A DNA stretch of 64,000 nucleotides from Bacteroidota bacterium (GCA_016213435.1 JACRAL010000028.1:2196-66195); one strand, 5' to 3'; positions 2,442 to 58,802 are shown, counted from the stretch's first letter. Program-made: numbers and translations. Notes: generated by a model from the sequence alone, not told the origin.

Positions 2442-2457
2442 GAGCCCCAGCCCTACC

Positions 2458-3255
2458 CTACAGGGAGGGAGATGACATGATTAAATTTGTCAATTCCACA
2501 AAATTATTTACGTTAAGTTGTTCAGCACGTTTGGTAAGGAGTTCAGAATTTAATCCTTGAACTTTAAACATTGAACCCAATGAATTTCTGAGTGTTTTTC
2601 TTCTTTGATTAAATCCTGCTTTCACCACTTTGAAAAATAATTGCTCATCGCAGTCTAATCTCTTGACTTCGTTTCTGTTTAACCTAATAACTGCAGATTT
2701 AACATGGGGCGGTGGATTAAATACTTGAGGATTTACGGTAAACAAATATTCTATTTTATAATATGCCTGCATTAATACACTGAGGATCCCGTACGTTTTA
2801 TTGCCTGGAGGTGAAGCAATGCGTTCTGCAACTTCTTTCTGAAACATCCCGATTACTTCAGGAATTTGATTTCTGTATTCAAGAACTTTAAAAAGGATTT
2901 GAGTGGAAATGTTATAAGGGAAATTTCCGATGATGGCAAATGGCAAATGACAGATGGCAGATGGCAGTAAAGCCAGTGTAAAATCCAGAAAATCTTTTTC
3001 GATAATTCTTCCTTCTAATTCAGGAAAACTCTTTTTCAGAAAGGCAATGGATTCTCGGTCGATCTCTACAACATGCGTTTCAAAATACTCTTTTTTCAAG
3101 AGGTATTTTGTAAGTACGCCTGTACCCGGACCTACTTCAATTACAGTTTTATATTTTTCTTTTTCAGAAAGTGATCTTACAATCTTTTTTGCAATATTCT
3201 CATCTTTGAGAAAATGTTGGCCGAGGTGTTTTTTAGGAGTAACGGAATGTGACAT
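2458..3255 (-). CDS. rsmA: 16S rRNA (adenine1518-N6/adenine1519-N6)-dimethyltransferase
   Basis: 'LGQHFL' and 'EVGPGTGVLT' SAM-binding motifs characteristic of KsgA/RsmA; 265 aa. Confidence 0.9.
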   Translation of the reverse strand: MSHSVTPKKHLGQHFLKDENIAKKIVRSLSEKEKYKTVIEVGPGTGVLTKYLLKKEYFETHVVEIDRESIAFLKKSFPELEGRIIEKDFLDFTLALLPSAICHLPFAIIGNFPYNISTQILFKVLEYRNQIPEVIGMFQKEVAERIASPPGNKTYGILSVLMQAYYKIEYLFTVNPQVFNPPPHVKSAVIRLNRNEVKRLDCDEQLFFKVVKAGFNQRRKTLRNSLGSMFKVQGLNSELLTKRAEQLNVNNFVELTNLIMSSPSL

Positions 3256-3551: not shown

Positions 3552-3697
3552 AGAAGCCCCTCTTTATCTCCCCGAAGGGGAGAAACTAAAAAGCCAAAAT
3601 ACAAAATAAAAAAGCGTTGCCTTGCATTTGGATATTATTTTCATTTTAGATATTGAATTTTCTCCTTCCCTTCGGGAAGGGTGGGATGGGCTTTATT

Positions 3698-7117: not shown

Positions 7118-8607
7118 AATATTACAGCCGGATGAATCAGTTCAACAATATGTTTTATTGCCGGTTCCGCAATGTCTAAAATTGGTTTCGGATAAACTCC
7201 CATTACTATTATCAATAACACGATTGGAACGAACACCGCTTTTTCATTAAAGTTTAAATCTGTAAAAGTTGAAGTAAGCGTATTTGTTTCTCCCAGCATA
7301 ATTTTCTGATAACTGCGAAGCATATACACTGCGCCAAGGATCACCGTAAGTCCGGCAAATCCTGCCATGTATGCATTGTATTGGTAAACTCCGTTTATGA
7401 GTAAGAATTCCCCGATGAAACCATTTGTGAGTGGAAGTGCAATGCTTCCAAGAAGAACAATCATGAACATGGTAGCAAAATATGGAATCACGTTTCGTAT
7501 TCCTCCGAATTTTGAAAGTTCTTGTGTTTGGGTGCGATTGAAAAGAATATCCACTACGAAGAATAATCCCACCACGTTAATTCCGTGTGCGAGCATCTGA
7601 ATCATTCCGCCTTGCAGTCCTTGTACTGTTAGAGAAAATATTCCTGCTGAAATTAATCCCACGTGAGCGATGGATGAATAAGCAATCAATCGTTTGAAAT
7701 CTTTTTGCATGATGGCAATGATCGATGCATAAAGAATACTTATGATAGAAAGAATCATTGCGGCATGTCCCCATTGCTGAACTCCGAGTGGAGCCATTGG
7801 CAATAGCCAGCGAATGAGCCCATAAGTTCCCATCTTCAGCATGATTCCAGAAAGAAGCATGGTGCCTTGTGTTGGTGCATTAGTATATGTATCCGGCTGC
7901 CATGTGTGAAATGGAAACACAGGCATCTTGATTGCAAATGCGATGAAAAGCGTCCAGAATATCCAGGTTTGTTCTGGAGAAGAAAGAGAAGATCCTGCAG
8001 AATATAATGCTTGAATATCGAAGGAGTGAGTTCCAGAAGTGTGAAGATAAAGATAGATAAGCCCAACCAGCATCAGCAAACTTCCAAAGAGTGTGTAAAC
8101 AAAAAACTTAAACGTGATGCGCGCGCGGTTTTCCCCGCCCCACAATAAACAAATGAACCAGATCGGAATCAGTGCGAGTTCCCAGAAGATGTAAAATAAA
8201 AATCCATCCATTGCTGTGAACACGCCCACCAACGCCATTTGCATAAAAAGAATGAGCGAATAAAAATACTTTGGATTCTTAATATCTCTGCTGAAGGAAG
8301 AAAGAATGATAAGGGGGACTAAAACAGTTGTAAGAAGCACAAGCAGGATACTGATACCATCCATCGCTACTTTGAAATGGATGCCGAGAGTTTGTATCCA
8401 AGCGAGGTTGACCATCATCTGAGGTTCTGCGTTGATTTTAAATTCAGATAAAGCGTAAATGGAAAGTATAAGCTCAATTAAGGAAAAAGCCAAAGCAAAT
8501 TTCTTCGCTTGTTCTGATTTTAAAAATAAAATCAACAAAGCAGCAACTAAAGGAAATCCTATGAGTATTGCAGTATTCATATTTTTTTTAGTTCGTCTTG
8601 CGAACAA
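7114..8607 (-). CDS. nuoM: NADH-quinone oxidoreductase subunit M
   Basis: 497-aa antiporter-like subunit with a 4-nt overlap with nuoN. Confidence 0.9.
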   Translation of the reverse strand: MFARRTKKNMNTAILIGFPLVAALLILFLKSEQAKKFALAFSLIELILSIYALSEFKINAEPQMMVNLAWIQTLGIHFKVAMDGISILLVLLTTVLVPLIILSSFSRDIKNPKYFYSLILFMQMALVGVFTAMDGFLFYIFWELALIPIWFICLLWGGENRARITFKFFVYTLFGSLLMLVGLIYLYLHTSGTHSFDIQALYSAGSSLSSPEQTWIFWTLFIAFAIKMPVFPFHTWQPDTYTNAPTQGTMLLSGIMLKMGTYGLIRWLLPMAPLGVQQWGHAAMILSIISILYASIIAIMQKDFKRLIAYSSIAHVGLISAGIFSLTVQGLQGGMIQMLAHGINVVGLFFVVDILFNRTQTQELSKFGGIRNVIPYFATMFMIVLLGSIALPLTNGFIGEFLLINGVYQYNAYMAGFAGLTVILGAVYMLRSYQKIMLGETNTLTSTFTDLNFNEKAVFVPIVLLIIVMGVYPKPILDIAEPAIKHIVELIHPAVIL

Positions 8608-8617
8608 CGTAAAGCAA

Positions 8618-10528
8618 TTATATCAGTTTAAAAAACAAAATCAAAATTATACTAACAACCATCGCAAAAATGTAAAACCCAATATGTCCTGTTTGTAATA
8701 ATCGCGCCTGTCCGCTCATCCATGTTACGCTTTCACCTGCAAAGTTTACAACACGGTCAATTGCCTTCAGTTCAATGATCTTGTGTAGTTTTTCAGATAA
8801 CCAGTTCAAAGGTTTAGTGAAAACTGCTTCGTAAATTTCATCGGCATAATATTTATGGTAGATCGTTTTTTGAACTGGGTTTACTGCAACTCCTTCTGCA
8901 ACAGGAAGATTTTCTTTCTTCACATAAAAGAACCATGCTGCACCGATTGAAGTTCCCGCTGCAAGAACGGCAACCACCATTAATATGATTTCTTTGGAGT
9001 GCGACATTTCTTTTGGAAGCATTTTGTAATCGGAAGCAGAAAATACAGGCGATAAAAATTCGTGCAACCAATGTGTGCCACCAAATACTTCAGGAATTCC
9101 GATGCATCCACCAATTGCAGAAAGTAGACCAAGAATAATAAGAGGAATGGTCATCGTGCTTGGGGATTCATGCAGGTGGTGTTCTTGTTTTTCTGTTCCT
9201 CTAAATTTTCCGAAGAAAGTGAGGAAAAGTAAACGGAACATATAAAATGCAGTGATCACAGAACCAAGCACTCCCATCAGCCAGAAGAAATTATTATATG
9301 TATATGCATGTCCTAGTATCTCATCTTTAGAGAAAAATCCTGAGCATGGAGGAATTCCGGATATTGCAATGGTTGCAATGAAGAAAGTTAGATAAGTTTT
9401 AGGTAAATATTTTTTCAGCCCGCCCATCTTGCGAATGTCTTGCTCTCCGCTCATTGCGTGAATTACGCTTCCTGCTCCTAGGAATAATAATGCTTTGAAA
9501 AATGCGTGAGTCGTTACATGAAATACAGCTCCTGTGTAGGCGCCAACACCCAATCCCAAAAACATATATCCGAGCTGACTCACGGTAGAGTAGGCGAGGA
9601 CTTTTTTAATGTCGTTCTGAAATAATCCGATCGTAGCAGCGAAGATGGCGGTGAACAAACCAACACCGGCTACAATATCCATAGAGATTGGAGCGAGTGT
9701 GTAAAGAATATTTGAACGCGCGATCATGTAAATACCTGCTGTTACCATTGTTGCCGCGTGGATAAGTGCGGAAACAGGAGTTGGACCGGCCATTGCATCC
9801 GGCAGCCACGTATATAAAGGAATCTGTGCGCTCTTTCCTGTGGCACCTACGAAAAGTAAAAGTGTGATGGCAATTATTACGGGCTGACTGGCTGGAAATG
9901 AATTTGCAACGTCAAATACTTCTTTGTATCGAACGCTTCCAAAAGTTATGTAAATAAGAATGATGCCAAGTAAGAATCCAAGATCACCAATGCGATTCAT
10001 GATGAATGCTTTGTTCGCAGCTTTGTTGTAATCGTTGTTCTTGAACCAGAAACCGATGAGCAGGTAAGAACAGAGACCAACGCCTTCCCACCCTACAAAC
10101 ATGGTGAGGTAGCTGTCGCCCAGCACAAGCAGCAACATGAAGAAAATAAATAAGTTCAGGTAAGCGAAGAATCGGTCGAACGCTGGATCATCATGCATGT
10201 ATCCGACAGAATACACATGAATTAAAAAACCAATGCCAGTTATGATAAGAAGAAACCAGCATGAAAGCGGATCAATTAAAAAATCAAATGGAGCATTAAA
10301 ATTTCCGGCAGAGATCCAGTCGAAAAGATGAATGGTGATTGCAACTCCTGACTTTTCACCGCCACCAATTAATCCTGAAAATGCATAAACAGAAAGTACA
10401 AGCGAAGCAAATACGGTACCGCAGCCAATAATGCCAACTAATCCTTTTGAAATTTTCTTGCCAAACAAACCTATGACAAGGAATCCCAAAAGAGGGAAAA
10501 CAGGAATTAGTGTAAAAATCGAGTTCAT
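8618..10528 (-). CDS. nuoL: NADH-quinone oxidoreductase subunit L
   Basis: 636-aa antiporter-like subunit with a long C-terminal extension typical of NuoL. Confidence 0.9.
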   Translation of the reverse strand: MNSIFTLIPVFPLLGFLVIGLFGKKISKGLVGIIGCGTVFASLVLSVYAFSGLIGGGEKSGVAITIHLFDWISAGNFNAPFDFLIDPLSCWFLLIITGIGFLIHVYSVGYMHDDPAFDRFFAYLNLFIFFMLLLVLGDSYLTMFVGWEGVGLCSYLLIGFWFKNNDYNKAANKAFIMNRIGDLGFLLGIILIYITFGSVRYKEVFDVANSFPASQPVIIAITLLLFVGATGKSAQIPLYTWLPDAMAGPTPVSALIHAATMVTAGIYMIARSNILYTLAPISMDIVAGVGLFTAIFAATIGLFQNDIKKVLAYSTVSQLGYMFLGLGVGAYTGAVFHVTTHAFFKALLFLGAGSVIHAMSGEQDIRKMGGLKKYLPKTYLTFFIATIAISGIPPCSGFFSKDEILGHAYTYNNFFWLMGVLGSVITAFYMFRLLFLTFFGKFRGTEKQEHHLHESPSTMTIPLIILGLLSAIGGCIGIPEVFGGTHWLHEFLSPVFSASDYKMLPKEMSHSKEIILMVVAVLAAGTSIGAAWFFYVKKENLPVAEGVAVNPVQKTIYHKYYADEIYEAVFTKPLNWLSEKLHKIIELKAIDRVVNFAGESVTWMSGQARLLQTGHIGFYIFAMVVSIILILFFKLI

Positions 10529-11418: not shown

Positions 11419-11454
11419 AAGCCCCTCCTAAATCCTCCCCGTTAGGGAGGACTT
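11419..11454 (-). promoter_or_regulatory. 36-bp GC-rich element: 5'-UTR hairpin + AGGAGGGG (SD-like) immediately upstream of nuoJ start
   Basis: mRNA sense reads AAGUCCUCCCUAACGGGGAGGAUUUAGGAGGGGCUUUAUAUG. An identical copy lies at 12126-12161 before nuoI. Confidence 0.6.
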
Positions 11455-11502
11455 AATACCATTTTTATTATTTATTATTTTCTTTTTCATTTTGCAGTTG
11501 TG

Positions 11503-11539
11503 CCCCGCTTTCTCCTCCCCAGTGGGGAGGTCGGGGCTC
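11503..11539 (-). repeat. Nested GC-rich hairpin immediately 3' of nuoI stop (GAGCCCCGACCUCCCCACUGGGGAGGAGAAAGCGGGGCAC)
   Basis: Two nested inverted repeats (GCCCCG/CGGGGC and CCTCCCC/GGGGAGG); an intra-operon stem-loop. Confidence 0.5.
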
Positions 11540-12122: not shown

Positions 12123-12125
12123 ATA

Positions 12126-12161
12126 AGCCCCTCCTAAATCCTCCCCGTTAGGGAGGACTTG
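12126..12161 (-). promoter_or_regulatory. Second identical copy of the 36-bp hairpin + SD-like element upstream of nuoI
   Basis: 36/36 identity with 11419-11454; ends 3 nt before the nuoI AUG. Confidence 0.6.
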
Positions 12162-12192
12162 AAATCATTTTAATTATTTATTGTTCTCCCTT

Positions 12193-13221
12193 TCATATTT
12201 TCCCGGTGATCCACATCACAATTCCGGTTATTGCAATATTCAATATCGCCAAAGGTATTAACCCTTTCCATCCTAAATTCATTAGTTGGTCATAGCGGAA
12301 ACGAGGCAATGTCCATCGCACCCACATAAATACAAAGATGAAGAAACATATTTTACAAAAGAGAAAAAATGTTCCAAGCAATGCAAGCATATTCGGATCG
12401 TGAACGAATCTGCCGAGGAACGGCATGTTGTATCCGCCAAAATAAAGTGTAGCAAGTATGGCAGAGGAAATAAACATATTGGTGTATTCGGCAAAAAGAT
12501 AAAAGCCAAGTTTCATAGAAGAATATTCGGTGTGATAACCTCCGATCAATTCGCTTTCGCATTCCGGAAGATCAAAAGGAGCGCGATTGGTTTCAGCAAA
12601 TGCGCAGATGATAAAAATTAAAAATCCAAGCGGTTGATACAAAATATTCCAGTGCCAGCCATGCTGCTGTGCTGCGATCTCACCAATGCTCAGCGTTCCG
12701 GTTGTCATGATGAGCGCGATGATGCTCAGTCCCATTCCGATTTCATAGGAGATCATTTGCGAAGAAGCGCGCAAAGCACCAAGCAATGCAAACTTATTAT
12801 TGGAAGCCCAGCCTCCGATCATGATTCCGTAAACTCCAACCGAAGTTATTCCGAGCAGATAAAGTATTCCGATGTTAACATCAGCCACCTGTAAAGAATA
12901 CTGATGCCCGAGAATTGTAAGTGAAGTTCCCCAGGGAATTATAGCGCCCGTCATTAAAGAAGTGAACATGGCAACGGAGGGCCCGAGGATAAAAAGAAAT
13001 TTATTGGAAACATCCGGGATCATTTCCTCTTTCATGAACATCTTTACGCCATCAGCAACCGGCTGAAGGATTCCGAAAGGACCCGCTCTGTTGGGACCAA
13101 GTCGGTCTTGTATAAATCCGGCAATCTTTCTTTCGGCATAGGTAGAATACATTGCAGCGACAAGCGTAATGCAAAAGACAATGACAACAAGAATTGCTTT
13201 ATATATAATGTATTCGATCAT
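12193..13221 (-). CDS. nuoH: NADH-quinone oxidoreductase subunit H
   Basis: 342-aa polytopic membrane subunit with NuoH/ND1 conservation. Confidence 0.9.
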   Translation of the reverse strand: MIEYIIYKAILVVIVFCITLVAAMYSTYAERKIAGFIQDRLGPNRAGPFGILQPVADGVKMFMKEEMIPDVSNKFLFILGPSVAMFTSLMTGAIIPWGTSLTILGHQYSLQVADVNIGILYLLGITSVGVYGIMIGGWASNNKFALLGALRASSQMISYEIGMGLSIIALIMTTGTLSIGEIAAQQHGWHWNILYQPLGFLIFIICAFAETNRAPFDLPECESELIGGYHTEYSSMKLGFYLFAEYTNMFISSAILATLYFGGYNMPFLGRFVHDPNMLALLGTFFLFCKICFFIFVFMWVRWTLPRFRYDQLMNLGWKGLIPLAILNIAITGIVMWITGKI

Positions 13222-16273: not shown

Positions 16274-16316
16274 TTAGCCTATCCTAAATCCTTCCCAAAG
16301 GGAAGCATTTTTATTT

Positions 16317-17543: not shown

Positions 17544-20500
17544 ATGAGTAAATACACAGAATATAAAAACCTGAACCTTCCCGAAATAGGAAAGGAAATT
17601 CTTGATCTGTGGGAGAAAAACCACACCTTTGAAAAGAGCGTTACCTCGCGTGAAGGAGCTGAGCCCTTTGTTTTTTATGAAGGACCTCCATCAGCCAACG
17701 GCATGCCCGGCATTCATCACGTGATGGCACGAACCATAAAGGATTTATTCTGCCGTTACCAGACTTTAAAAGGAAAACAGGTAAAACGTAAAGCGGGTTG
17801 GGACACGCACGGGCTTCCGATCGAATTGGCGGTGGAAAAAACCTTAGGCATCACCAAGGAAGACATCGGAAAAAAAATCTCCATTGAAGATTACAACAAG
17901 GCATGCAGGACAGAGGTGATGAAGTATCAGGACAAATGGGAAGAAGTTACCCGTTTGATGGGATATTGGGTGGACATGAAACATCCGTATGTCACTTACG
18001 AAAACAATTACATCGAAAGTGTTTGGTGGCTGCTGAAAAAACTGTACGACAAAAAACTATTATATAAAGGATATACCATTCAGCCGTATTCTCCTGCTGC
18101 GGGAACGGGATTGAGTACGCATGAATTGAACCAACCGGGATGTTACAGGAATGTGAGGGATACGACTGCTGTGGCAATGTTCCGCCTCATCCCCAACCCT
18201 TCTCCGAAGGAGAAGGGAGAAATCCTCTCCTTTGGAGAGGATTTAGGTGAGGCGTATTTTCTTGCGTGGACGACAACTCCTTGGACTCTACCTTCGAATA
18301 CAGCCTTGGCTGTAGGAAAGAACATCAATTATGTTTTGATTGCTACCTTTAATCGTTTTACGTGGAAGAAATGTTTTGTGATTCTCGCGGAGGATTTATT
18401 TGGGAAGTATTTTCAGCGAATTGCAATTATTGGAAATTATACAGAAGAAGAAATTTTCAAAATACAAAACCCGTCTATTGCAGAGGCATTAAACCGCTTA
18501 GACAATCATCCGAAAGAGAAGAGAATTATTAACGGGCACGAATTAATCGGAGTTATTGTCTCAAGATTCACAGGAAAAGATATCGAAGGAATCCACTACG
18601 AACAACTTCTCCCTTTTAAAGCAAATGAAAAAGTGGAGTTGAACGGCAAACTCCTCCCCTTTGGGGAGGCGGGAGGGGCCGTTATTCTTGGAGATTTCGT
18701 TACCACCGAAGACGGAACCGGAATCGTTCACATAGCTCCAAGTTTTGGCGCGGATGACTTTAGAGTTGCGAAACAAAACGGAATTGGTTCGCTTACGCTG
18801 GTTGACAGGCGCGGAAAATTTTTTCCGGAAGTAAGAGATGATGTTTTTCTCTATGGAGACGAGTATGTGAAAGCAGAATATCTCACGGATACAGAAAAGC
18901 AAATTGAATTCCAAAAACAAAAAAAAGTTTTAGAAGCAGCTGGAAAAATTAAAGAACTGAAAGAATATCTAAGCGTTGATGAGCGCATTGTGCTGAAACT
19001 TCAGGAAGAAGGAAAGCTTTTTAAAAAAGAAAAATACGAGCACAGCTATCCTCATTGCTGGCGCACGGACAAACCTATTTTATATTATCCGCTTGACAGT
19101 TGGTTCGTGAAAGTGACTGAGTACAAAGACAGAATGGTAGAACTCAATAAAACCATCAACTGGAAACCGGCACATACAGGTACAGGGCGTTTTGGTGAGT
19201 GGCTGAACAATTTGCAGGATTGGAATTTGTCGCGCTCGCGCTTCTGGGGAATTCCGCTTCCGATCTGGAGAACAGAAGATGGCAAGGAAGAAAAAATTAT
19301 TGGTTCGGTGGATGATTTGAGAAAGGAAGTTAATAAAGCAGTACAGTCTGGTTTTATGAAGGTGTCCCCCTTTGAAGGGAGTGAGGAGGATGTGGATTTA
19401 CACAAACCGTATATCGACAGAGTATTTCTTGTTTCCGATTCAGGGAAAAAAATGACTCGTGAGTCAGATCTGATTGATGTCTGGTTCGATTCAGGCGCAA
19501 TGCCCTATGCTCAATGGCATTATCCGTTCGAAAATAAAGAAATGATTGATTCTCTCCCCTCTCCTGTGGGAGAGGGGTCTGGGGTGAGGCGGACCGGGGC
19601 TGCTTTCCCTGCCGACTTTATTGCAGAAGGAGTTGACCAAACCCGTGGATGGTTTTACACACTTCACGCTATTGCAGCTTTGTGTTTTGATTCGGTCGCT
19701 TATAAAAATGTGCTGAGCAATGGGTTGGTACTTGACAAGAATGGAAACAAGATGAGCAAACGCCTCGGCAATGCCGTTGATCCGTTCTCCACGCTTGAAA
19801 AATATGGTCCCGATGCGGTGCGCTGGTACATGGTCACAAATGCCGATCCTTGGGATAATTTAAAATTTGATTTGGAAGGAGTAGCAGAAAAGCAAAGAAG
19901 TTTTTTCGGAACGCTTTATAATACCTATGCTTTCTTTGCCCTTTATGCGAACATTGACAATTTCTCTTTTAAAGAAAAAGAAATTCCATTAAAAGACAAA
20001 CCCGAAATTGACCGATGGATTTTGTCAGAACTCAATTCGCTGATAAAATCGGTGGATGAAAGTTACAGCAGTTATGAGCCAACAAAAGCAGGCAGAGCGA
20101 TCGAAACTTTTGTGGACGAGCATTTGAGTAATTGGTATGTTCGTTTGTGCAGAAGGAGATTCTGGAAAGGAGAATACACACAGGATAAAATTTCTGCTTA
20201 TCAAACCTTATATCGTTGTCTGGAAGTGGTTGCGCAGCTTTCTTCGCCTATTGCACCTTTCTTCTGCGAGAAATTATTTAAAGACCTGAACGATATAACC
20301 GGAAGACAGAAAGCGGAGAGCGTGCATCTGAGTTTATTTCCAAAGATGGATGAGAGCTCTATTGATAAACCGCTGGAAGAGAGAATGGAAATAGCTCAGA
20401 AAATTTCTTCGATGATTCTTTCTATCCGGAAAAAGGAAAATATCCGTGTTCGTCAGCCACTTACAAAGATTCGAGTTCCGATATTGGATGATTCGTTCAA

Positions 20501-21134
20501 GAAAAAGCTGGAGCTTGTGAAAGATTTGATCCTTTCGGAAGTAAATGTAAAGGAGATTGAATATGTTGGAGAAGACGATGTACAAATCGTGAAAAACCTG
20601 AAGCTGAATTTCAAAACACTAGGTAAGAAATGTGGCAAACACATGAAAGCTGTTCAAGCGCATGCAACCGATCCTATTTATGCAAAACTTATTATCCAAT
20701 CTATTTCAAAAAATGATAGTTACGAAATAAAAATAGAGAACGAAACAATAGAACTTCTTCCTGAAGATGTTGAGATCATTCCGGTTGACATTCCGGGCTG
20801 GAAAGTGGCTAACAGCGGTGCGCTTACGGTCGCACTTGACATCACGCTTACCGAAAAATTAAAGGAGGAAGGAATAGCAAGGGAAATCGTAAATCGCATT
20901 CAGAATCTGCGAAAAGAGAAGAAATTTGAGGTTACAGATAAGATAGAAGTAAGGATAAAAGATCACAAGAAAATAAATTCAGCCATTTTAAATAATTTAG
21001 ATTACATTCGCGCGGAAATTTTGGCAAATACGTTTGAGATCGTCAGCGAGATTAATGGAAACGGCATTGAGATTGAAGTAGATGAAGAGATAAAAACAAT
21101 GGTCGAGATTGACCGCATTAAACAGTTAAACTAA
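17544..21134 (+). CDS. ileS: Isoleucine--tRNA ligase, carrying three in-frame palindromic-element insertions
   Basis: HIGH-type motif 'PSANGMPGIHH', 'WTTTPWTLP', 'WNLSRSRFWG' and KMSKS 'KMSKRLGN'. The 1196-aa length is about 50 aa longer than usual, owing to the GC-rich inserts. Confidence 0.95.
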   Translation: MSKYTEYKNLNLPEIGKEILDLWEKNHTFEKSVTSREGAEPFVFYEGPPSANGMPGIHHVMARTIKDLFCRYQTLKGKQVKRKAGWDTHGLPIELAVEKTLGITKEDIGKKISIEDYNKACRTEVMKYQDKWEEVTRLMGYWVDMKHPYVTYENNYIESVWWLLKKLYDKKLLYKGYTIQPYSPAAGTGLSTHELNQPGCYRNVRDTTAVAMFRLIPNPSPKEKGEILSFGEDLGEAYFLAWTTTPWTLPSNTALAVGKNINYVLIATFNRFTWKKCFVILAEDLFGKYFQRIAIIGNYTEEEIFKIQNPSIAEALNRLDNHPKEKRIINGHELIGVIVSRFTGKDIEGIHYEQLLPFKANEKVELNGKLLPFGEAGGAVILGDFVTTEDGTGIVHIAPSFGADDFRVAKQNGIGSLTLVDRRGKFFPEVRDDVFLYGDEYVKAEYLTDTEKQIEFQKQKKVLEAAGKIKELKEYLSVDERIVLKLQEEGKLFKKEKYEHSYPHCWRTDKPILYYPLDSWFVKVTEYKDRMVELNKTINWKPAHTGTGRFGEWLNNLQDWNLSRSRFWGIPLPIWRTEDGKEEKIIGSVDDLRKEVNKAVQSGFMKVSPFEGSEEDVDLHKPYIDRVFLVSDSGKKMTRESDLIDVWFDSGAMPYAQWHYPFENKEMIDSLPSPVGEGSGVRRTGAAFPADFIAEGVDQTRGWFYTLHAIAALCFDSVAYKNVLSNGLVLDKNGNKMSKRLGNAVDPFSTLEKYGPDAVRWYMVTNADPWDNLKFDLEGVAEKQRSFFGTLYNTYAFFALYANIDNFSFKEKEIPLKDKPEIDRWILSELNSLIKSVDESYSSYEPTKAGRAIETFVDEHLSNWYVRLCRRRFWKGEYTQDKISAYQTLYRCLEVVAQLSSPIAPFFCEKLFKDLNDITGRQKAESVHLSLFPKMDESSIDKPLEERMEIAQKISSMILSIRKKENIRVRQPLTKIRVPILDDSFKKKLELVKDLILSEVNVKEIEYVGEDDVQIVKNLKLNFKTLGKKCGKHMKAVQAHATDPIYAKLIIQSISKNDSYEIKIENETIELLPEDVEIIPVDIPGWKVANSGALTVALDITLTEKLKEEGIAREIVNRIQNLRKEKKFEVTDKIEVRIKDHKKINSAILNNLDYIRAEILANTFEIVSEINGNGIEIEVDEEIKTMVEIDRIKQLN

Positions 21135-22816: not shown

Positions 22817-23452
22817 ATGGCGAAGCCAAAGCCAAAATACTACGTAGTCTGGAAAGGAAAAGAGCCGGGTATTTTTGATTCCTGGGATACGTGCAAGAAG
22901 CAAATCCAAAATTTTACAGGGGCACAATACAAATCCTTTAAAACAAAGGAAGCAGCAGAAAGCGCATTTAAATTATCATACAAAGATGCTATCATCTCAC
23001 CCCTCACTCCCCTCTCCACGAGGAGAGGGGAAGAGGGAGAGGTGGTTGGTTATCCCATGCTCGAAAGCATCTCTGTAGATGCCGCTTTTAACGGAAAGGT
23101 AATGGAGTACAAAGGCGTTTACACCAAAACAAAACAAGAACTATTCAAGCTGGGTCCTTTTGAAGATGCAACAAATAATATCGGGGAATTCCTCGCTATC
23201 GTGCATGCCTTGGGTTATCTGAAAAAACAGCACAGCACGGTTCCCGTTTATTCCGACAGTGTTACAGCCATCCACTGGGTGAAAACGCATAAGGCAAACA
23301 CCAAACTAAAAGAAACCCCTGCAAACAAATCTCTTTTCTTTCTTATTGAAAGAGCGGAAAAGTGGTTAAGCCAGAATAAATACCCTAATAAACTCCTCAA
23401 GTGGGAGACAAAAGCATGGGGAGAGAACCCTGCTGACTTTGGCAGGAAGTAA
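22817..23452 (+). CDS. rnhA: Ribonuclease HI with N-terminal RNA/DNA hybrid-binding domain (Cauli_VI-type)
   Basis: N-terminal 'YYVVWKGKEPGIFDSWDTCKKQIQNFTGAQYKSFKTKEAAESAF' hybrid-binding domain, then an RNase H catalytic core (D..E..D..D). A GC-rich palindromic insert lies in the linker. Confidence 0.8.
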   Translation: MAKPKPKYYVVWKGKEPGIFDSWDTCKKQIQNFTGAQYKSFKTKEAAESAFKLSYKDAIISPLTPLSTRRGEEGEVVGYPMLESISVDAAFNGKVMEYKGVYTKTKQELFKLGPFEDATNNIGEFLAIVHALGYLKKQHSTVPVYSDSVTAIHWVKTHKANTKLKETPANKSLFFLIERAEKWLSQNKYPNKLLKWETKAWGENPADFGRK

Positions 23453-31969: not shown

Positions 31970-33016
31970 ATGACAGCATCCGAAATACAAATTAATCCCA
32001 AAATGGTAGCCCTTGGCCGTGAATCACGCGGTCTCTCTCAAACAGACCTTTCAGGCAGGTTAAATACCACTCAGGGGTTCATCAGCCGAGTTGAAACGGA
32101 TATGAAGTCCATGTCAAAAGACACATTAGAAAGGTTGAGCAAGATTCTGAAATATCCCATTGATTTTTTCTATCAGGAAGGCGAAGCGTTTCTGCCCATG
32201 AGTTTGAACTTTCGCAAGCGCGACCATGTGAACGCAAAAGTATTGATGCCGTTTGAAGCGCAATGCAATTTATACCGCCTCAATATTGAAATGCTTTCAC
32301 AAAAATTAAAATTCCCTGCGCTGAATATTCCTGACTTGGATGTAAAAAAAATTGGCTCGGAAGAACAAGTTGCAAAACAGCTTCGCAAGTTTTGGAAAAT
32401 TCCAAAAGGACAAATTGAAAATTTCACTGAACTTTTAGAAGCAAATGGAATCATCATTATTTCATTTGACTTCGGAACAGAACGAATTGATAGCAGAACA
32501 ATTCTTACAAAGGACAAGCATCCAATTATAGTTGTAAATAAAAATCACCTTGCGGACAGACAGCGTTTCAGTTTGGCGCACGAGCTTGGGCATTTAGTGA
32601 TGCACTCACATACGCTTCCTTCGCATGACAGAGATATTTCACACGAGGCAAATATGTTTGCCGCAGGTTTCCTTTTGCCTGAAAGCGAAGTGAGAAAAGA
32701 TTTTGAGAAAGGAATTACCATTGCTTTGCTTGCTGAACTAAAAAAGAAATGGAAAGTTTCAATGATTGCGCTTTTATACCGCGCATTTGACTTGGGATTT
32801 TTTACTGAGAATCAAAAAAAATATATGCTTGCTCAGTTCAATCAAATGAATATACGCAGGCGCGAGCCGATTGAATTGGATTTTCCGAAAGAGAAACCGC
32901 ATTTGCTCCGCGACCTGATTACAAAATATAAAAACGCTCATAAATTTTCAGCAAAAGAGTTAGCAGCGAGCTTTCATCTCGAACTGGAGGAGTTTATGAG
33001 CAAATATGGAGAGTAA
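31970..33016 (+). CDS. XRE-family HTH regulator fused to ImmA/IrrE-family zinc metallopeptidase
   Basis: N-terminal HTH_XRE ('LSQTDLSGRLNTTQGFISRVE'); a 'HELGHLVMH' HEXXH motif sits in a COG2856-like domain. Confidence 0.8.
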   Translation: MTASEIQINPKMVALGRESRGLSQTDLSGRLNTTQGFISRVETDMKSMSKDTLERLSKILKYPIDFFYQEGEAFLPMSLNFRKRDHVNAKVLMPFEAQCNLYRLNIEMLSQKLKFPALNIPDLDVKKIGSEEQVAKQLRKFWKIPKGQIENFTELLEANGIIIISFDFGTERIDSRTILTKDKHPIIVVNKNHLADRQRFSLAHELGHLVMHSHTLPSHDRDISHEANMFAAGFLLPESEVRKDFEKGITIALLAELKKKWKVSMIALLYRAFDLGFFTENQKKYMLAQFNQMNIRRREPIELDFPKEKPHLLRDLITKYKNAHKFSAKELAASFHLELEEFMSKYGE

Positions 33017-46020: not shown

Positions 46021-46571
46021 TGACAGCATTTGCAACACAAATCCTAAACAACGGAGCCTCGCTGAAAATTATTTCAGCCGATGGAACTCGTAATATTTTG
46101 AAAAATCAAATCCATGAAGTGAGCGTAATCAACGACACGGTAATTAAAATTGATATTGGTCAGGGAGCGTTGAACAATATCTTCATCAATTTTCCCGAAG
46201 TCAGCAATCCTCAAACGCCAACTCCTGATGCACTCGTGGATGCAATCAACATAATGCTTCAAAATACTATTGTAATTCCTCCCGGCATTTCCACCGAGCT
46301 GAACCAACAAAAGGAAATTACGGACTTGGACAGCATAAAATCTTCCTTGCTGTTTCAGGCTCCGCAGATTTCCGATGAAACGAATCCGAAAACTATTTAT
46401 AAAGGATTCGCAGTTCCCGGCTCAAGAACTTCTGATGCAGTTTGGGCGATTCAGAAAATCACAAACAACAGGGGAATCTACACTTACCTGTGGGCGGGTG
46501 GAAATCAAAACTTTGACAAGGTTTGGGACAACCGAGCAACATTAATTTATCCGCCAAGTGCTAATGCGTAA
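46021..46571 (+). CDS. Hypothetical protein
   Basis: ATG at 46021 within the listed ORF 45936..46571; ends by overlapping the giant gene start. Confidence 0.4.
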
Positions 46572-49500
46572 GCATAAACCATATCAGGTAAAACCCGAAA
46601 TGATTTTCACGCTTGGGTATTTGCAGCAAGGCGAGATACCCGAAGTGAAACTGCGATTGAACAGGTCTTCCCGAAAAAAACTTTTCGGGAAGATTGGTTC
46701 ATCGAAAGATGTAGCAGATTTCATCCGTAAGATTTATAAACGCGGTGAAATTGAATTGCAGGAACAATTTATCGTGCTGTATCTCGACAGGGGAAATAAT
46801 ATTATTGGATTTTACAGGCATACCACAGGTGCGATAAGCGGAACGATTGCCGATGTGAGAATTATTCTTGCGGCTGCTTTGAAAAGCGCAAGCACTTCCA
46901 TTATTATAGCTCACAATCATCCAAGCGGAAACCTTCAACCAAGCCAAGCAGACATTGACCTCACAAAAAAGATAAAGGAAAGTGCGAACACAATGGATAT
47001 TTCCCTGCTTGACCATGTGATTGTAACAAAGGATGGTTATTATTCCTTCGGAGATGAAGGATTGGTTGGCTTGGAAGAAAATGAAATCGGTTTTGTAAAC
47101 AGCAAGCTCAAGCCGGATATCAATAAAGTGATTCAAGGCGATGTTCTCGAAACCCTAAAAGATTTTCCCGATGAGAGCGTGGACTGTGTTATCACTTCAC
47201 CTCCGTACTGGCAACTGCGCGACTATGGATGGAAAGGGCAATGGGGCTTGGAAAAAACTTTTGACAAGTACCTTGAGAATCTTTGGAAACTCATGGATGA
47301 AATCAGGCGCGTACTTAAACCGAAAGGAACTGTTTGGATTAATCTTGGCGACACTTACGGAACACAGTCGGGAACGGGCCGGGGAACGCAGTACATCAGC
47401 AAAAGCACAAAGCACCATGTAGAAAACGGAGCAACTCTCATCAAAGGAAAAGCTCCGCATAAATCACAATTATTAATTCCGCATCGCTTCGCTATCGGGT
47501 GTATGGAACGCGGATGGATTGTACGCAATGATATTATTTGGGCGAAGAAAAATTCAATGCCTGAAAGCGTGAAAGACCGTTTTGCAAAAAAGCATGAGTA
47601 CGTTTTCTTGATGGTAAAAGAAAAGGATTATTATTTCGATTTGGACAGCGTGAGAGAACCGCATAAGGCAGAATCAGTCGAGAGAACAAAGCGCGGATGG
47701 AACGGACACAGGGAAAAAGGAAGTTCGTATGAAAACATGGATGAAAAAAAGATGTGCCACCCTGACGGAAAGAATCCCGGAGACATTTCTGATTTTTGGA
47801 AAATTCAAAACAAAGGCGGACACGATAAACACTATGCAAAATACAGTTCCGACTTACTCACCAAGCCGATTCTTGCAGGTTGTCCCAAAGGCGGAATTGT
47901 ACTGGACCCGTTCTGCGGGACTGCAAGCACAGGCGTAAGGGCGATTGAACTCGGAAGAAAATTCATCGGCATTGAAGGGAAGAAAGAATACTGCCACATA
48001 GCCGAAAAGAATCTGAAAAATATTTCCCTGAACGGATTGGGATTACTCAGCACTATTCCCAAGTGGCAGTTCGTTGAAAAAGTTGAAAAGGATTTGGAGA
48101 AAAAAATTTCCTACAACAAACGCTCTATTGAAAAACTTGCAGCAACCTTCGGAATCCACGATAAAACTTTGGTGAAGGAACTTACAGAACTTGCTATTGT
48201 ACGCAGGGCAAGATCCCTCGCGCACAGTCAGGAAAGCGAAAAGGAAAAATTTGATTCCATTGTTGAGCTATACAACAGCCAGGTCAATCTTTCCCACCGC
48301 ACAAGCCAAAGTATTTTATTGCAACAATATTCTACGCCCGCGCCAATCACATTCCTCGCAGGAATATTTGTTGGCGCGGACAAAGGCGTTTCTGTTTTTG
48401 AACCAAGCGCAGGAAATGGATTATTGACGATTGCAGGAACAGAGCAGAATATTATTGTAAATGAAATTGATTCTGTACGCAGGGAAAATCTGCACACGCA
48501 GGGGTACAAAATGGTTTTGAACCGCGATGCGACAAAACCATTTCCTGAGTTTTATCAAAAGATGAGCGCAGTTATTACCAATCCCCCTTTCGGTACGCTT
48601 GATACCGAAGTGATGTACGATAACTTTCCGATTAAAACGCTCGACCACCTGATGGCTCTGCGTGCGCTCGATACGATGAGGGACAACGGAAAGGCATCCA
48701 TCATAATCGGTGGGCACACGCAATGGGATGAGAAAGGCAGAATACAGGCAGGAAAGAACCGAATCTTTTTCAATTATCTGTATAGCCGCTATAACGTAAT
48801 TGACGTAATCAATATTGACGGCAGTTTATATTCACGGCAGGGAACATCCTTCGATGTGAGATTGATTTTGATTGACGGCAGAAAAAAAAATCCGCAGGGA
48901 GCCGCGCCTGTAAAAAATTCCGAACTATCTAATACTGTAAAAACATTTGATGCTTTATACGAAAGGGTGAACGATGCAATTAGCGCAAGCGGGCTTTCGG
49001 AAATCAAAAGATTCAATTCTCTGAAAGAAAAATATCCCGATGTGGTTTTGCTTTTAAATACAGGAAGTTTTTACGAAACATTCGGGGAAGATGCTGTTGC
49101 AACCTCAAAAATTATCGGAACTGTTTTATCGCATCGCAACGGTATTCCCGTAACGGGCTTCCCGCTTGTTTCCCTCGACAGTTATTTATCAAAACTCGTG
49201 AGAAGCGGAAACAAAGTAGCGATTGCCGATGAATTACAAAATCCAAAATCAATGAAACAAAATATTTCTTCTTTAGAACGCGAAGCATTGGCTTTGCAAA
49301 GACAACTTTTAGGCGAGGAACTTGGCTCGCCCTACATTCCCGCTTCCGAATCCTGCGTTGTGCTGAATACGCAAGTTCCCGATTCGATGAGCTTTGAAAC
49401 GCAGAAAGCACTCGAACAAATCCGTGAAGAAGTTGGCGGAGACATTGATGCGTTTGTACGGCATAGATTAAATTTTCGTAGTAAGATGGAACTCTGCAAG

Positions 49501-56517: not shown

Positions 56518-58446
56518 CTATTTAGGCAAGGATGAATTTTGTTGTGCCGAATTCAAAGCGGCTCTTGCTTTCTGAAGGTTGCCTGCAATATTTTTGTTGT
56601 TCGGATTCAACTGAAGTGCTTTCTCATAGTACGAAACAGCAGTTTTATAGTCCCCAAGGTTATGATTGATCGCCCCAAGATTCCCAAGCGCATCCGGATT
56701 ATTTGCATCATATTGGATTGCCTGCAGAAAATATTTTTTAGCCGACTCATAATCTTTGCGTTCAAAATAGATCACTCCGAGGTTATTTGCAGCAGAGGTA
56801 TAATCAGGCGAAACTTTTAGAGTCTGCTCGTAAACCTTCTCAGCGTTTTCCCTGTCTCCCATTCCATAATAGCAAACACCGGCATTGTAAAGTGCTTCCG
56901 TATTGTCAGGTAAAATCTCAATTGCTTTTTTATAATATGCAATTGCTTTTTGAAAAAGAGCAGATCGTTTGTTGGGAACCGGTTCTTTTTCCGCGAGTTC
57001 TCGATAGGAAGAACCGAGCGCACTTTCCGCCCTTGAACTTTTAGGAGTTGCTTCAACTCCTGATGCAAAAAGCGAGAAATTATCTTTCCAGTCTTTGTTG
57101 CGGTTAAATGTTTTGAAGGAGAACAACGCAAGGACAACAAACAAAATGATGCCCCGACCCTGAAGGGAGAAGAAGGAACTGCGATTGCTCCCTTTAGGGT
57201 TGGGGCAAATCACTACTGCAACAGCAATACAAAACGCCAATGACGGAGTGAACAAAAACCGTTCTCCCAGCGTTGCACCGATCATGATGAAGATGTTTGA
57301 TACCACCGACATCGTAACAAAAAAAAACAAAATGCAGTAAGCATAAACAGCCATTGCTGATTGCTGATTTCTGGTCTCTGGTTTTCTGAGCAATTGGACT
57401 AAAAAATGTAAAGAATAAATTCCAAGTACGGCAAACACACACAATATGAGAATAACTTTAATATCCGAGAAAGAAACAATCGGTATTTGATTGAAAGAAT
57501 AATCCCACGAAAGGGGATGAGGAAAAAATAAAAGCAGAATATATTTTCCAAGAATTAAAAGCGCAGTGGCTATCCTGTCTGAACCGTTTGTAGCTGCAGC
57601 CAGTGCGTTGTTCACCACTTTCATTTTCTCAGCAAAAGTTACGGTCTCAAGCACCGAACTTCGTATAACCATATAAACTCCGAATGCAGCAGCAAAAGAG
57701 ATCATGCCGAGTCCGATTTTTTTCAAAGGAACACTTCGAAAAAAAAATATCGTCAGCGGGATAATCGCAAGAAATGTTACCGCCATTTCTTTGCAAAGAA
57801 GAGAGAGAAAGAAGAACAGAACGCTCAAAAAGAAATATTTTTTAAAACCCGTATCAATATGTTTAAGGATGAAAAGAAGTACGAACTCAAAAAAAATAAA
57901 GTTCAATATGTCGTCTCTGCCTTTTATGTTTGCCACTGCTTCGGTGTGAATGGGATGAGCAGCAAAAAGCAAGGTGATGACCAGAGGAATGACCTCACCC
58001 CCAACCCCTCTCCCAAAGGAGAGGGGAGAAGATTTCTCGTTAAACAATTGTTTCATCAAACGAAAAAGTAAAACACACGACAATGCAAATAACAAAACAT
58101 TTATAAAATGCCCCGTATGCGGATTATTTTCAAAAAAATGTTTTTCGATTGCAAAAATGACAGACACCACAGGGCGGTAGGACTGATCATTATGCCCCGT
58201 GAAACCGTAAATAAAACTATGATGGAGAATACTTGGTATGCCGCTCAATCCCGCCTGAACATCTTTGTTCTTCAAATACACCACATCGTCATCCAGCACA
58301 TAGCCGTGGTTCAGCGTGTTTGCGTAAAGCAAAAATGCAAAAGCAAAAACAATAAATGAAAGTAAACGGTCTTTTGTGGAAAGAGAAGGCTTGTTTGCAG
58401 GTCGGGATTTAAAATCCCGACCAACTGACTTCTTTTTTTTGTTCAT
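56518..58446 (-). CDS. Multi-pass membrane protein with C-terminal TPR repeats (TMTC/PMT_2-like glycosyltransferase-type architecture)
   Basis: ~11 transmembrane helices, then at least four TPR motifs ('ALYNAGVCYYGMGD', 'AANNLGVIYFERKDY', 'ALGNLGAINHNLGDY'). The CDS contains two in-frame GC-rich palindromic inserts. Confidence 0.7.
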   Translation of the reverse strand: MNKKKKSVGRDFKSRPANKPSLSTKDRLLSFIVFAFAFLLYANTLNHGYVLDDDVVYLKNKDVQAGLSGIPSILHHSFIYGFTGHNDQSYRPVVSVIFAIEKHFFENNPHTGHFINVLLFALSCVLLFRLMKQLFNEKSSPLSFGRGVGGEVIPLVITLLFAAHPIHTEAVANIKGRDDILNFIFFEFVLLFILKHIDTGFKKYFFLSVLFFFLSLLCKEMAVTFLAIIPLTIFFFRSVPLKKIGLGMISFAAAFGVYMVIRSSVLETVTFAEKMKVVNNALAAATNGSDRIATALLILGKYILLLFFPHPLSWDYSFNQIPIVSFSDIKVILILCVFAVLGIYSLHFLVQLLRKPETRNQQSAMAVYAYCILFFFVTMSVVSNIFIMIGATLGERFLFTPSLAFCIAVAVVICPNPKGSNRSSFFSLQGRGIILFVVLALFSFKTFNRNKDWKDNFSLFASGVEATPKSSRAESALGSSYRELAEKEPVPNKRSALFQKAIAYYKKAIEILPDNTEALYNAGVCYYGMGDRENAEKVYEQTLKVSPDYTSAANNLGVIYFERKDYESAKKYFLQAIQYDANNPDALGNLGAINHNLGDYKTAVSYYEKALQLNPNNKNIAGNLQKARAALNSAQQNSSLPK

Positions 58447-58679
58447 TCAGCCAAGACAGTGATCTTGTTTTTTAAAACTTCTACCACTCCGCCTTTGATG
58501 GGGAAAGAATGACTTTGTTTTTGTTCGTCAACCACTTTTACACTTCCTTTTTTGAGAGAGGAAATAAGCGGAGCGTGATTTTTCAAAACCCCGAATGAAC
58601 CGGCTGAGCCGGGAAGTTTTACAGATTTAACTTCTCCGCTGAAAAGTTTTTTGTCGGGAGTGATTATTTCAAGAAGCAT
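58443..58679 (-). CDS. atpC: F0F1 ATP synthase epsilon subunit (short form)
   Basis: 'LLEIITPDKKLFSGEVKSVKLPGSAGSFGVLKNHAPLISSLKKGSV' matches the AtpC N-terminal beta-sandwich; internal Met start chosen. Confidence 0.7.
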   Translation of the reverse strand: MLLEIITPDKKLFSGEVKSVKLPGSAGSFGVLKNHAPLISSLKKGSVKVVDEQKQSHSFPIKGGVVEVLKNKITVLAE

Positions 58680-58802
58680 ATATCTAAGATTTAATAACAA
58701 TGAGTTAAAGCAGTTGTCGCAAAAGTATGAAAAAGTTTTTCCCCAGCCCTAAAGGGAGCAATACAACTTATATTCTCCCTTTAGGGTCGAGGCGGCTGTT
58801 GG

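Follow-up and report, generated by a model that had tools for sequence, protein, structure and literature searches.

Hairpin repeat units in a Bacteroidota TPR membrane-protein gene and their association with a DUF559 nuclease gene

Rickettsia palindromic elements are confined to Rickettsia and are mostly 100–150 bp long, and they are not known to have an associated enzyme. They are inserted in frame in genes whose products probably still function, with further copies between genes, and translated intragenic copies have also been reported for REPs (repetitive extragenic palindromes), including copies in tRNA synthetase genes (PMC3733652). Here, we describe palindromic elements in a 64,000-nt stretch of DNA from a Bacteroidota bacterium (GCA_016213435.1, JACRAL010000028.1:2196-66195), which we call the window. 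Two of these elements are in frame in a gene for a TPR membrane protein, and a third is an intergenic relative of one of the two. All three are built from one kind of hairpin unit, which is found elsewhere singly, as inverted pairs, and at both ends of cassettes that carry a gene for a DUF559 (PF04480) protein, a predicted nuclease; some of these cassettes are in frame within essential genes. We lean towards the view that the three elements of the window are non-autonomous relics of a family of selfish elements driven by DUF559.

The system closest in logic is that of the REP sequences, their REPIN dimers and the RAYT transposases. The present units resemble REPs in being GC-rich, imperfect palindromes of 20–40 bp with many dispersed copies, many of them just 3' of genes. 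As in REPINs, inverted dimers form a larger hairpin (57151-57206, 58741-58795 and 18183-18257 in the window, and B-type pairs in loci L358 and L359), and as in REPtrons, a small enzyme gene is bracketed by its own inverted repeats, with the type of enzyme seemingly paired with the type of repeat. Unlike REPs, they carry no GTAG or CGTC tag, and the bracketed gene encodes a PF04480 Vsr-like PD-(D/E)xK nuclease, not a Y1 HUH transposase. Moreover, REPs are species-specific, whereas one core sequence of the present family occurs in at least eight phyla, and a whole enzyme cassette can stand in frame within an essential gene. The likeness to the Rickettsia elements lies in the combination of intergenic copies with in-frame copies in intact genes, here those for the TPR protein, isoleucyl-tRNA synthetase (IleRS) and RNase HI. 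The units differ in being 30–57 bp long, phylum-spanning and linked to DUF559, a distinction drawn from the descriptions of the two families.

DUF559 shares a fold group with the Vsr-like, or EDxHD, homing endonucleases such as I-Bth0305I (PMC3424549, PMC3239194, PMC2677866, PMC9403480). In a classification of PD-(D/E)XK proteins it was grouped with VSR, DUF2726 and a group I intron homing endonuclease (PMC3424549), and it has been referred to the EDxHD homing endonuclease family (PMC9403480). Like EDxHD homing genes, the cassettes described below occur sporadically at a fixed site beside a highly conserved motif of an essential gene; unlike those in introns, inteins and split-intein loci, they are simply read through, and they are bracketed by dispersed hairpin repeats that also exist alone. 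Another comparable system is ShiLan, an insertion in a phage DNA methylase that hides an HNH endonuclease encoded out of frame (PMC11855218). As with ShiLan, there is no detectable splicing domain, the host frame is free of stops and the insert would, by prediction, protrude from the host protein as a loop (PMC11855218), but DUF559 is encoded in the host frame and has flanks belonging to a repeat family, whereas no dispersed hairpin flanks have been described for ShiLan. In the literature searched, the coverage of which was incomplete, we found no description of DUF559 with flanking hairpin repeats or in-frame cassettes, and nothing relevant for the literal unit sequences.

Hairpin units in the TPR gene and beside it

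The TPR gene lies in a neighborhood (atpC–TPR gene) that is kept in relatives. Judged by the Pfam lists of its homologues, the N-terminal part of the protein is PMT_2/TMTC_DUF1736-like and the C-terminal part consists of TPR repeats. An earlier reading of the window, made from the sequence alone, had reported two palindromic inserts in this gene and an intergenic sibling copy. Both inserts are indeed inside the coding sequence, and the peptides quoted for them, CPNPKGSNRSSFFSLQGRG and SSPLSFGRGVGGEVIPL, were correctly placed. The elements of this region are:

56518..58446, minus strand: TPR membrane-protein host gene, a 642-residue open frame with three in-frame hairpin elements
57151..57206: A-type inverted pair, tails outward, in frame, encoding CPNPKGSNRSSFFSLQGRG (residues 414-432)
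57991..58031: B-type lone unit, in frame, encoding SSPLSFGRGVGGEV (residues 136-152)
58397..58425: third in-frame hairpin of the TPR gene, in the N-terminal tail, GGTCGGGATTTTAAATCCCGACC, encoding VGRDFKSRP
58741..58795: A-type inverted pair, intergenic, CCCCAGCCCTAAAGGGAG, a 16-nt spacer and CTCCCTTTAGGGTCGAGG

The element at 57151-57206 has the layout GCCCCGA + CCCT GAA GGGAG, a 17-nt spacer, and CTCCC TTT AGGG + TTGGGGC. Structure prediction agreed with its description as a hairpin of ≈56 bp, giving a stem of ≈20 bp and a loop of ≈17 nt, with energies of −42 kcal/mol on the plus strand (z = −7.7) and −31.5 kcal/mol on the minus strand (z = −5.3). The intergenic pair lies 8 nt 3' of the stop codon of an AhpC/redoxin gene and upstream of atpC, and folds at −27.1 and −31.8 kcal/mol on the two strands (z = −4.0 and −5.4, respectively). 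These two copies had been called nearly the same. They align in either orientation with 32 invariant columns, nearly all of which are in the arms (GCCCCRACCCTAAAGGGAG), but their loops of 15–17 nt are unrelated, so the description holds for the arms alone. The arms themselves align well above random expectation: the arm 12-mer CCCTAAAGGGAG, with at most one mismatch, was found five times in the window against 0.10 expected, a count that none of 100 shuffles equaled.

The coding strand of the element at 57991-58031 reads TCT CCCCTCTCC TTTG GGAGAGGGG TT GGGGGTGAGG, a hairpin followed by a G-rich tail, and its translation within the 642-residue frame also contains SSPLSFGRGVGGEVIPL. The energy of this hairpin is unremarkable by itself (z about −1.5). 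The sequence was found again in the window at 19551-19592 (92% identity) and at 23004-23045, and the pattern CCTCTCC-N4-GGAGAGG matched three times in the window, against 0.02 expected.

The sequence-only reading had proposed one mobile sub-family with both a coding and an intergenic copy. Both kinds of copy are present, but the two apparent types have one architecture, which had been overlooked. In the common building block, a C-rich tail (GCCYCNCC..AA) precedes a short hairpin (YCCTCYCC, a loop of 3–5 nt, GGRGAGGR), and the block occurs singly or as inverted pairs with the tails outward. A-type elements are two minimal units, GCCCCRA + CCCT-AAA-GGG(AG), inverted, with outward tails and a 15–17-nt spacer. 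B-type elements are units like that at 57991, and a pair built of them in the same layout is found at 18183-18257. When all GC-rich hairpins of the window (GC content roughly 40%) were read, the total came to at least 14 units, that is, at least 11 besides the three noted, some intergenic and some in frame. These additional units, together with presence and absence at matched sites and a wide distribution, bear out the proposed mobility.

The closest relatives of the TPR protein come from uncultured Bacteroidota and are 76–79% identical to it. We aligned it with 29 orthologues and placed these on a neighbor-joining tree. At the 57151 site most orthologues show PFLLNRFGKNIL.G..G, and the 19-residue A-type peptide is absent from all 29. 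However, five of the 29 bear different hairpin-derived peptides of the same design at this codon position. The DNA of three of these contains a B-type pair (P0013 and P0009) or a B-type lone unit (P0003); A and B types, the former represented by the pair in the window, replace one another at a single codon position. The unit-bearing orthologues are dispersed over the tree, with empty alleles between them.

At the second site (57991), a B unit is present in the same frame, with a different loop, in L003/P0001 and L004/P0003. The element at this site is not unique to the present genome. Sharing of the peptides by orthologues had been named as grounds for rejecting the mobile-insert proposal, and for this element that holds in part, since P0001 and P0003 have the peptide. 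P0002, the nearest relative of the window protein, has an unrelated AT-rich sequence there. The 42-nt element is identical at 33–35 of 42 positions in all three pairs of copies, with differences mostly in the loop and at the edges, whereas third codon positions across the TPR gene are only 48–54% identical. Stem identity so far above that of synonymous sites fits recurrent insertion, conversion by other copies or a constraint on the DNA better than plain ancestry.

The units appear to have been filtered by their coding properties. In coding-strand orientation, the 57151 copy has C TCC CTT YAG GGT as its second arm, in which the consensus T would give TAG and the C of the window gives CAG (Gln). 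This change (G at 57162) is the sole arm position at which the copy departs from the consensus, and it removes the in-frame stop. The variant is common across the A family at large; selection may thus have acted on standing variation. For B units read as a hairpin and then a G-rich tail, one of the three frames has a TGA; the in-frame copies that we read use only the two TGA-free frames, 'SPLS..GRGVGGEV' and 'LPSP.GEGSGVRR'. In an AlphaFold (AF2) model of the TPR protein (mean pLDDT 83), residues 135-151 and 414-427 form coil between membrane helices, with low local confidence, and the coil of the A-type insert is flanked by helices 399-413 and 428-452. On this model, both inserts would sit in connecting loops.

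The third hairpin, at 58397-58425, belongs to a sequence family different from A and B, and its membership is uncertain. Its peptide, VGRDFKSRP, is also present in P0010 and P0017, and no further copies of the hairpin were found in viral contigs or in 278 fetched loci. The N-terminal tail of the TPR protein and a further loop look like mosaics of hairpin-like segments. The tail comes in three interchangeable types, one of which (SPRPSPKERGKK) is a B-like hairpin, and these types form a mosaic over the gene tree.

Two side observations concern the same sites. An AT-rich repeat, AAATTGAAAATTGAAAAT (translated as 'KLKIEN' from one strand and as 'FSILNFQFS' from the other), occupies loops that hold GC-rich units in the window, namely, TPR site 2 of L001 and IleRS site I1 of L156, and is found in proteins P0002, P0005, P0008, P0012, P0017, P0020, P0021, P0122, P0185 and P0191. 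This suggests a second in-frame insertion family using the same permissive sites. At the redoxin–atpC junction, four relatives (L001, at 8488-9768, L003, L004 and L358) have a homoserine dehydrogenase gene exactly where the window has its intergenic A-type hairpin, and a tblastn search detected no copy of that gene anywhere in the window. Its absence could reflect a deletion or rearrangement tied to the hairpin element.

DUF559 genes beside the units and cassettes in essential genes

We searched for the B unit as a pattern of 29 exactly specified bases, CCCCTCTCC-N4-GGAGAGGGG-T-N-GGGGGTGAGG. It was found in 30 stretches of viral contigs and in more than 119 stretches of species-representative genomes, which belong to at least eight phyla among the matches listed. 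The Bacteroidota carriers include Prevotella, Chitinophagaceae, Spirosomataceae, Flavobacteriia and others; elsewhere, the pattern occurs in Cyanobacteria, Chloroflexota, Planctomycetota, Alpha- and Betaproteobacteria, Fibrobacterota, Acidobacteriota, Actinomycetota and Ignavibacteriales. Prevotella jejuni DSM 26989, P. veroralis DSM 19559 and Pinibacter aurantiacus are among the cultured carriers. The GC content around the copies ranges from 30 to 72%. The consensus of 132 copies, aCT-CCCCTCTCC-N4-GGAGAGGGG-TY-GGGGGTGAGG-c, is flanked by random sequence, conservation stopping 3 bases 5' and 1 base 3' of the core, and the loop is free to vary. The identity of a 29-base core across phyla could reflect either horizontal spread or a strongly constrained recognition sequence.

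For the A type, a strict paired pattern matched only one viral contig, and a single-arm pattern was far more informative. The A arm (GCCCCRACCCTAAAGGGAG) was present in more than 120 metagenome stretches, mostly of 30–45% GC, as arm–spacer–arm hairpins like those of the window, as units in the loops of variable stems, and in tandem arrays. In metagenome contigs the arm is often enclosed, within the loop, by a stem that is variable yet complementary (X-TTT-arm-X'; L162, L164, L198, L199, L245 and many others); such stretches are either larger composite repeats or the result of insertion of the unit into hairpin loops. The tandem arrays have a 28-nt period (L160, L183, L207 and L241), and several adjoin murC; that of L183 has 14 units around a DUF559 gene.

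To find genes associated with the units, we clustered, all against all, the open reading frames (ORFs) of the loci retrieved by means of the B core. The most widespread cluster near B units was a protein of ≈125 residues matching PF04480, DUF559 (E = 1e-31 to 1e-36), which was also the only recurrent family at these loci that was not housekeeping. Among the 119 genome loci listed, 11 have a DUF559 gene, which lies at most 300 nt from a unit in 10 of the 11 (P = 1.3e-5 against random placement), and at seven loci it is bracketed by inverted units with their tails outward. Of the 120 A-type metagenome loci listed, nine have DUF559, within 300 nt of a unit in eight cases (P = 0.002). Overall, about 8% of the fetched loci have DUF559 next to or between units. 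When DUF559 proteins were clustered by average linkage of pairwise identities, one A-associated cluster stood apart from two B-associated ones; by this sequence comparison, DUF559 clade matches unit type. A third hairpin family was seen at five of 53 viral DUF559 loci, where terminal inverted repeats of 40–58 nt surround the gene (mismatched control pairings scored at most 12). This family is of high GC content and reads CCTCCCCCGC-GAT-GCGGGGGAGG, then TGGCCC-NNN-GGGCC, then GGAGGGGGCG (L289, L290, L292, L298 and L304).

The other recurrent ORF families at the fetched loci were ABC ATPases, histidine kinases and MurC; near A units, the larger clusters comprised these three and sigma factors. 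The second recurrent cluster near B units consisted of ABC-transporter ATPases, and we attribute it to chance.

The DUF559 family is very large: a profile search gave at least 7971 clusters at E ≤ 1e-10, and the best 120 matches are all free-standing proteins of 123–151 residues. The nearest solved structure is the uncharacterized 3HRL (E = 2e-19), and I-Bth0305I is not among the solved structures matched by phmmer at E ≤ 1. Many close homologues (among P0241-P0360) are found only on contigs of 0.5–1 kb or on up to 29 contigs, as expected if the gene and its flanks behave as assembly-breaking repeats.

Whole cassettes are found inside essential genes. PF04480 is present within IleRS in nine of the best 120 IleRS clusters. 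In a codon alignment, the site that we call I3, ...HYPFENKEMI(D/E) | G.AFPADFIAEG, was seen in three states. It is empty in L156, the closest relative of the window; it holds a lone B unit in the window (19551-19592, a net gain of 42 nt); and in L157 and L158 it holds, in frame, a cassette consisting of tail and hairpin, DUF559, and hairpin and tail. A bare pair was not seen at I3 among the compared sequences. Further IleRS clusters have the same layout as judged by their protein sequences. In leucyl-tRNA synthetase (LeuRS), in-frame cassettes occupy one site at four loci, just before the TTRPDT motif ((V/I)(F/Y)TTRPDT). Another in-frame cassette is in a 1325-residue methylase-like ORF, and one is fused at the N-terminus of an ORF resembling tryptophan synthase alpha, while the cassettes of Prevotella are free-standing. 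The embedded DUF559 copies keep the invariant residues (D-F, E-x-D-G-x-x-H, R, N), the reading frame of the fusion proteins is continuous, and the Pfam lists of the fusions contain only IleRS domains and PF04480/PF18741. These cassettes share with homing elements a nuclease from a family with homing members and sporadic presence at fixed sites with empty alleles; carriage by a self-splicing intron or an intein was not found in them. The nuclease gene associated with the units had not been seen in the sequence-only reading.

Lone units, pairs and nested units are also in frame in further proteins of unrelated bacteria, such as 'LPFPSGEGQGVRR' in LeuRS (L100), 'LTPNPSPKGEGG' in an ABC transporter (L097) and units in a methylase-like ORF (L137). 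At least five units surround a single DUF559 within the LeuRS of L120.

Proposed mobilization by DUF559 and the alternatives

In the reading that we favor, the cassette, with its two outward tails, two hairpins and a gene of ≈125 codons for a Vsr-like PD-(D/E)xK endonuclease, would be the autonomous form, and pairs and lone units would be its derivatives or satellites. DUF559 would nick or cut DNA at or near cognate units or at empty sites, and host repair would then use a filled template to copy units or entire cassettes, much as in homing. Copies that land in genes would survive only in tolerant surface or inter-helix loops and in a stop-free frame, after which the C-rich and G-rich arms would be translated as flexible Pro/Ser/Leu and Gly/Glu/Arg linkers. 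The common architecture, the distribution of copies, the polymorphism of sites, the adjacency of DUF559 and its match to unit type, and the in-frame cassettes are all observed; we infer from these comparisons the role of DUF559 as mobilizing enzyme, its target, the spread by break repair and the colonizing of new sites. Since a PD-(D/E)xK nuclease cannot join DNA alone, repair-mediated copying is the likeliest route. Homing-like copying fits both the fixed sites next to highly conserved motifs of IleRS and LeuRS and the series of empty, lone-unit and cassette states at one site. In addition, element-bearing TPR alleles of different clades share flanks, A-V/Y-x-I/L before the insert and VLALFSF after it, as co-conversion would yield. 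Persistence in essential genes without an intron or intein would be possible through translation of the entire cassette, which would be tolerated as a loop or domain.

Several points weigh against this reading. The 64-kb window has no DUF559 gene, so the tie to the copies in the window comes from membership in the same sequence families; nor was a free-standing DUF559 found in ≈60 kb of non-redundant DNA from relatives (L001, L003, L004 and L156). Lone units and pairs far outnumber cassettes, 46–48 of the 53 viral DUF559 loci have no clear flanking repeats, and the surroundings of A-type units are variable (arrays, direct orientation, units inside stems) compared with the clean bracket of the B type. 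At I3, the sole clean pair of empty and filled sites, there is neither a target-site duplication nor convincing microhomology. A PD-(D/E)xK nuclease by itself would leave integration at unrelated sites unexplained, and the adjacency would be equally expected if DUF559 were a homing gene invading pairs that spread by other means. Finally, nuclease activity and current mobility are predictions from sequence.

In the main alternative, the units would be REP- or REPIN-like repeats spread by machinery not seen in the fetched loci, for example a RAYT-type Y1 transposase elsewhere in the genome, with DUF559 merely a parasite homing into the center of pairs. The units are certainly REP-like, being short, GC-rich, imperfect palindromes that often follow stop codons or lie between the genes of operons and that form inverted dimers, and REPs and intragenic REPs fit the same description (PMC3733652). 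A position of DUF559 between two inverted units is what would be expected of a dimeric nuclease that recognizes a pair and disrupts its own site, and the numerous pairs without DUF559, including 57151-57206 and 18183-18257, and the excess of simple forms over cassettes would follow. However, the tags of the two REP super-families are absent from the unit ends, both in the 132-copy B consensus and in the A arm. Among 239 loci, DUF559 was the only small ORF family found repeatedly next to the units, although no search was aimed at Y1 transposases. REPs associated with RAYTs differ from species to species, whereas here one 29-base core is identical in at least eight phyla, and at I3 a bare pair was not among the states seen. 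We consider this explanation unlikely, although it deserves to be kept in mind.

It has less to recommend it that the units are functional motifs under selection, whether a small RNA, a stability or terminator hairpin or a protein-binding DNA site, and are present in genes incidentally. The conservation of the stems far beyond synonymous sites in the three orthologous copies, with varying loops, would suit such a function, as would the copies directly after stop codons or before start codons and the arm variant of the 57151 copy, which retains G–U pairing on the plus strand. The best, sub-threshold Rfam match of the B unit is whalefall-1 (RF01762), with which it has in common the first hairpin, CUCUCC-UUGG-GGAGAG, and the 3' tail GGGUGAGG(A/U)C. 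Described from whale-fall metagenomes only, whalefall-1 is a candidate non-coding RNA of unknown function that its authors rated as likely RNA (PMC2864571). The match scores 22.8 bits against a gathering threshold of 37, though, and lacks the second hairpin, the 24 nt of which are replaced by 5 nt. A scan for terminator-like sequences showed no enrichment (6 against 3.6 ± 1.7 expected, 56.4–59.4 kb). Copies are found on both strands relative to genes and within essential coding regions, are present or absent between close relatives, and bracket a nuclease gene, and a function would not account for different unit types in the same loop across lineages. Taken together, a functional origin seems improbable; whalefall-1 may, in turn, be one of the variants of the present repeat family. 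At gathering thresholds, Rfam identified only tRNA-Ser in the window, and the matches of miRNA models to the long hairpin under relaxed settings were dismissed as meaningless.

Least probable is an ordinary MITE (a miniature transposable element with inverted repeats) derived from a DDE insertion sequence: pairs do have terminal inverted repeats, formed by their arms, around a short non-coding center, and in-frame MITE insertions are known in other bacteria (reviewed in PMC10969869), but the comparison of empty (L156) with filled (window, L157 and L158) I3 sites gave no target-site duplication, DUF559 (PF04480) is the only gene that turned up within these inverted repeats, with no DDE transposase as a parent, and half elements, the lone units, are the commonest form.

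Our preferred reading remains one of mobilization by DUF559. In a narrow view, palindromic repeats that lie in frame and have an intergenic sibling add a member to a known kind, whereas the wider finding looks like a new variant of selfish DNA with a broad reach. Our own judgment is evenly balanced as to whether it represents an undescribed, phylum-spanning form in which DUF559 is bracketed by cognate repeats, spreads by break and repair, leaves numerous lone units and pairs in its wake and persists unspliced in essential genes.

Further units in the window and implications

The remaining units of the window are:

2444..2471: A-like lone unit, intergenic, between convergent ORFs, GCCCCAGCCCTACCCTACAGGGAGGGAG
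3554..3693: inverted pair of B-like units ≈80 nt apart, tails outward, intergenic, AAGCCCCTCTTTA-TCTCCCC GAA GGGGAGA ... CCTTCCC TTC GGGAAGG-GTGGGATGGGCTT
11421-11452 (tail plus hairpin) and 11512-11537 (hairpin plus tail): two B-like units in the spacer between consecutive minus-strand ORFs
12127..12158: B-like unit directly upstream of an ORF start, part, with its AT-rich flank, of a 75-nt repeat
16277..16310: B-like lone unit, intergenic, GCCTATCCTAAA-TCCTTCCC AAA GGGAAGCA
18183..18257: B-type inverted pair, tails outward, in frame in IleRS (17544..21134, plus strand), encoding RLIPNPSPKEKGEILSFGEDLGEAY
18650..18680: B-like lone unit, in frame in IleRS, CTCCTCCCC TTT GGGGAGG CGGGAGGGGC, encoding LLPFGEAGGA
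19551..19592: B-type lone unit, in frame in IleRS, encoding SLPSPVGEGSGVRR
23004..23045: B-type lone unit, in frame in the linker of RNase HI (22817..23452, plus strand), encoding PLTPLSTRRGEEGEVV

Besides the TPR gene, there are thus three in-frame sites in IleRS, with four units in all, and one in RNase HI. The unit at 18650-18680 is common to L158/P0167, P0126, P0154 and P0177 and is absent from L156 and L157, and the RNase HI orthologue of L156 has an unrelated linker at the position of 23004-23045. The 75-nt repeat (11419-11493 and 12125-12199, 88% identity) consists of a B-like unit and an AT-rich stretch, and each copy is directly 5' of the start codon of one of two consecutive minus-strand ORFs, which probably belong to a nuo-type operon.

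No hairpin unit was noticed between 23045 and 57151, while at least 14 are in the flanking core DNA. Within this interval, 31970-56512 has the look of a mobile element that has integrated: it contains a large gene for a serine recombinase (54788..56512), the ORF of which overruns a tRNA-Ser gene (56350-56441, minus strand), a 2128-residue protein resembling RadC, N6_N4 methylase, MutS_I and SNF2-like helicase (46558..52944), and an IrrE–HTH pair (31970..33016). It is as if this unit-free island had arrived recently.

Units of this kind give rise to spurious small ORFs and, in proteins, to odd inserts rich in Pro and Gly, and they probably disrupt metagenome assemblies; recognizing them improves the annotation and alignment of conserved markers such as the aminoacyl-tRNA synthetases. 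If the proposed mechanism is true, it would give a biological role, and a testable substrate, to DUF559/COG2852, a very large family without a function, and would explain the widespread 'PLS..GEG.GVR'-type peptides of predicted proteomes. It would also mean that, besides introns and inteins, there is a third route by which a nuclease-bearing selfish element can reside in essential genes, namely, in-frame read-through.

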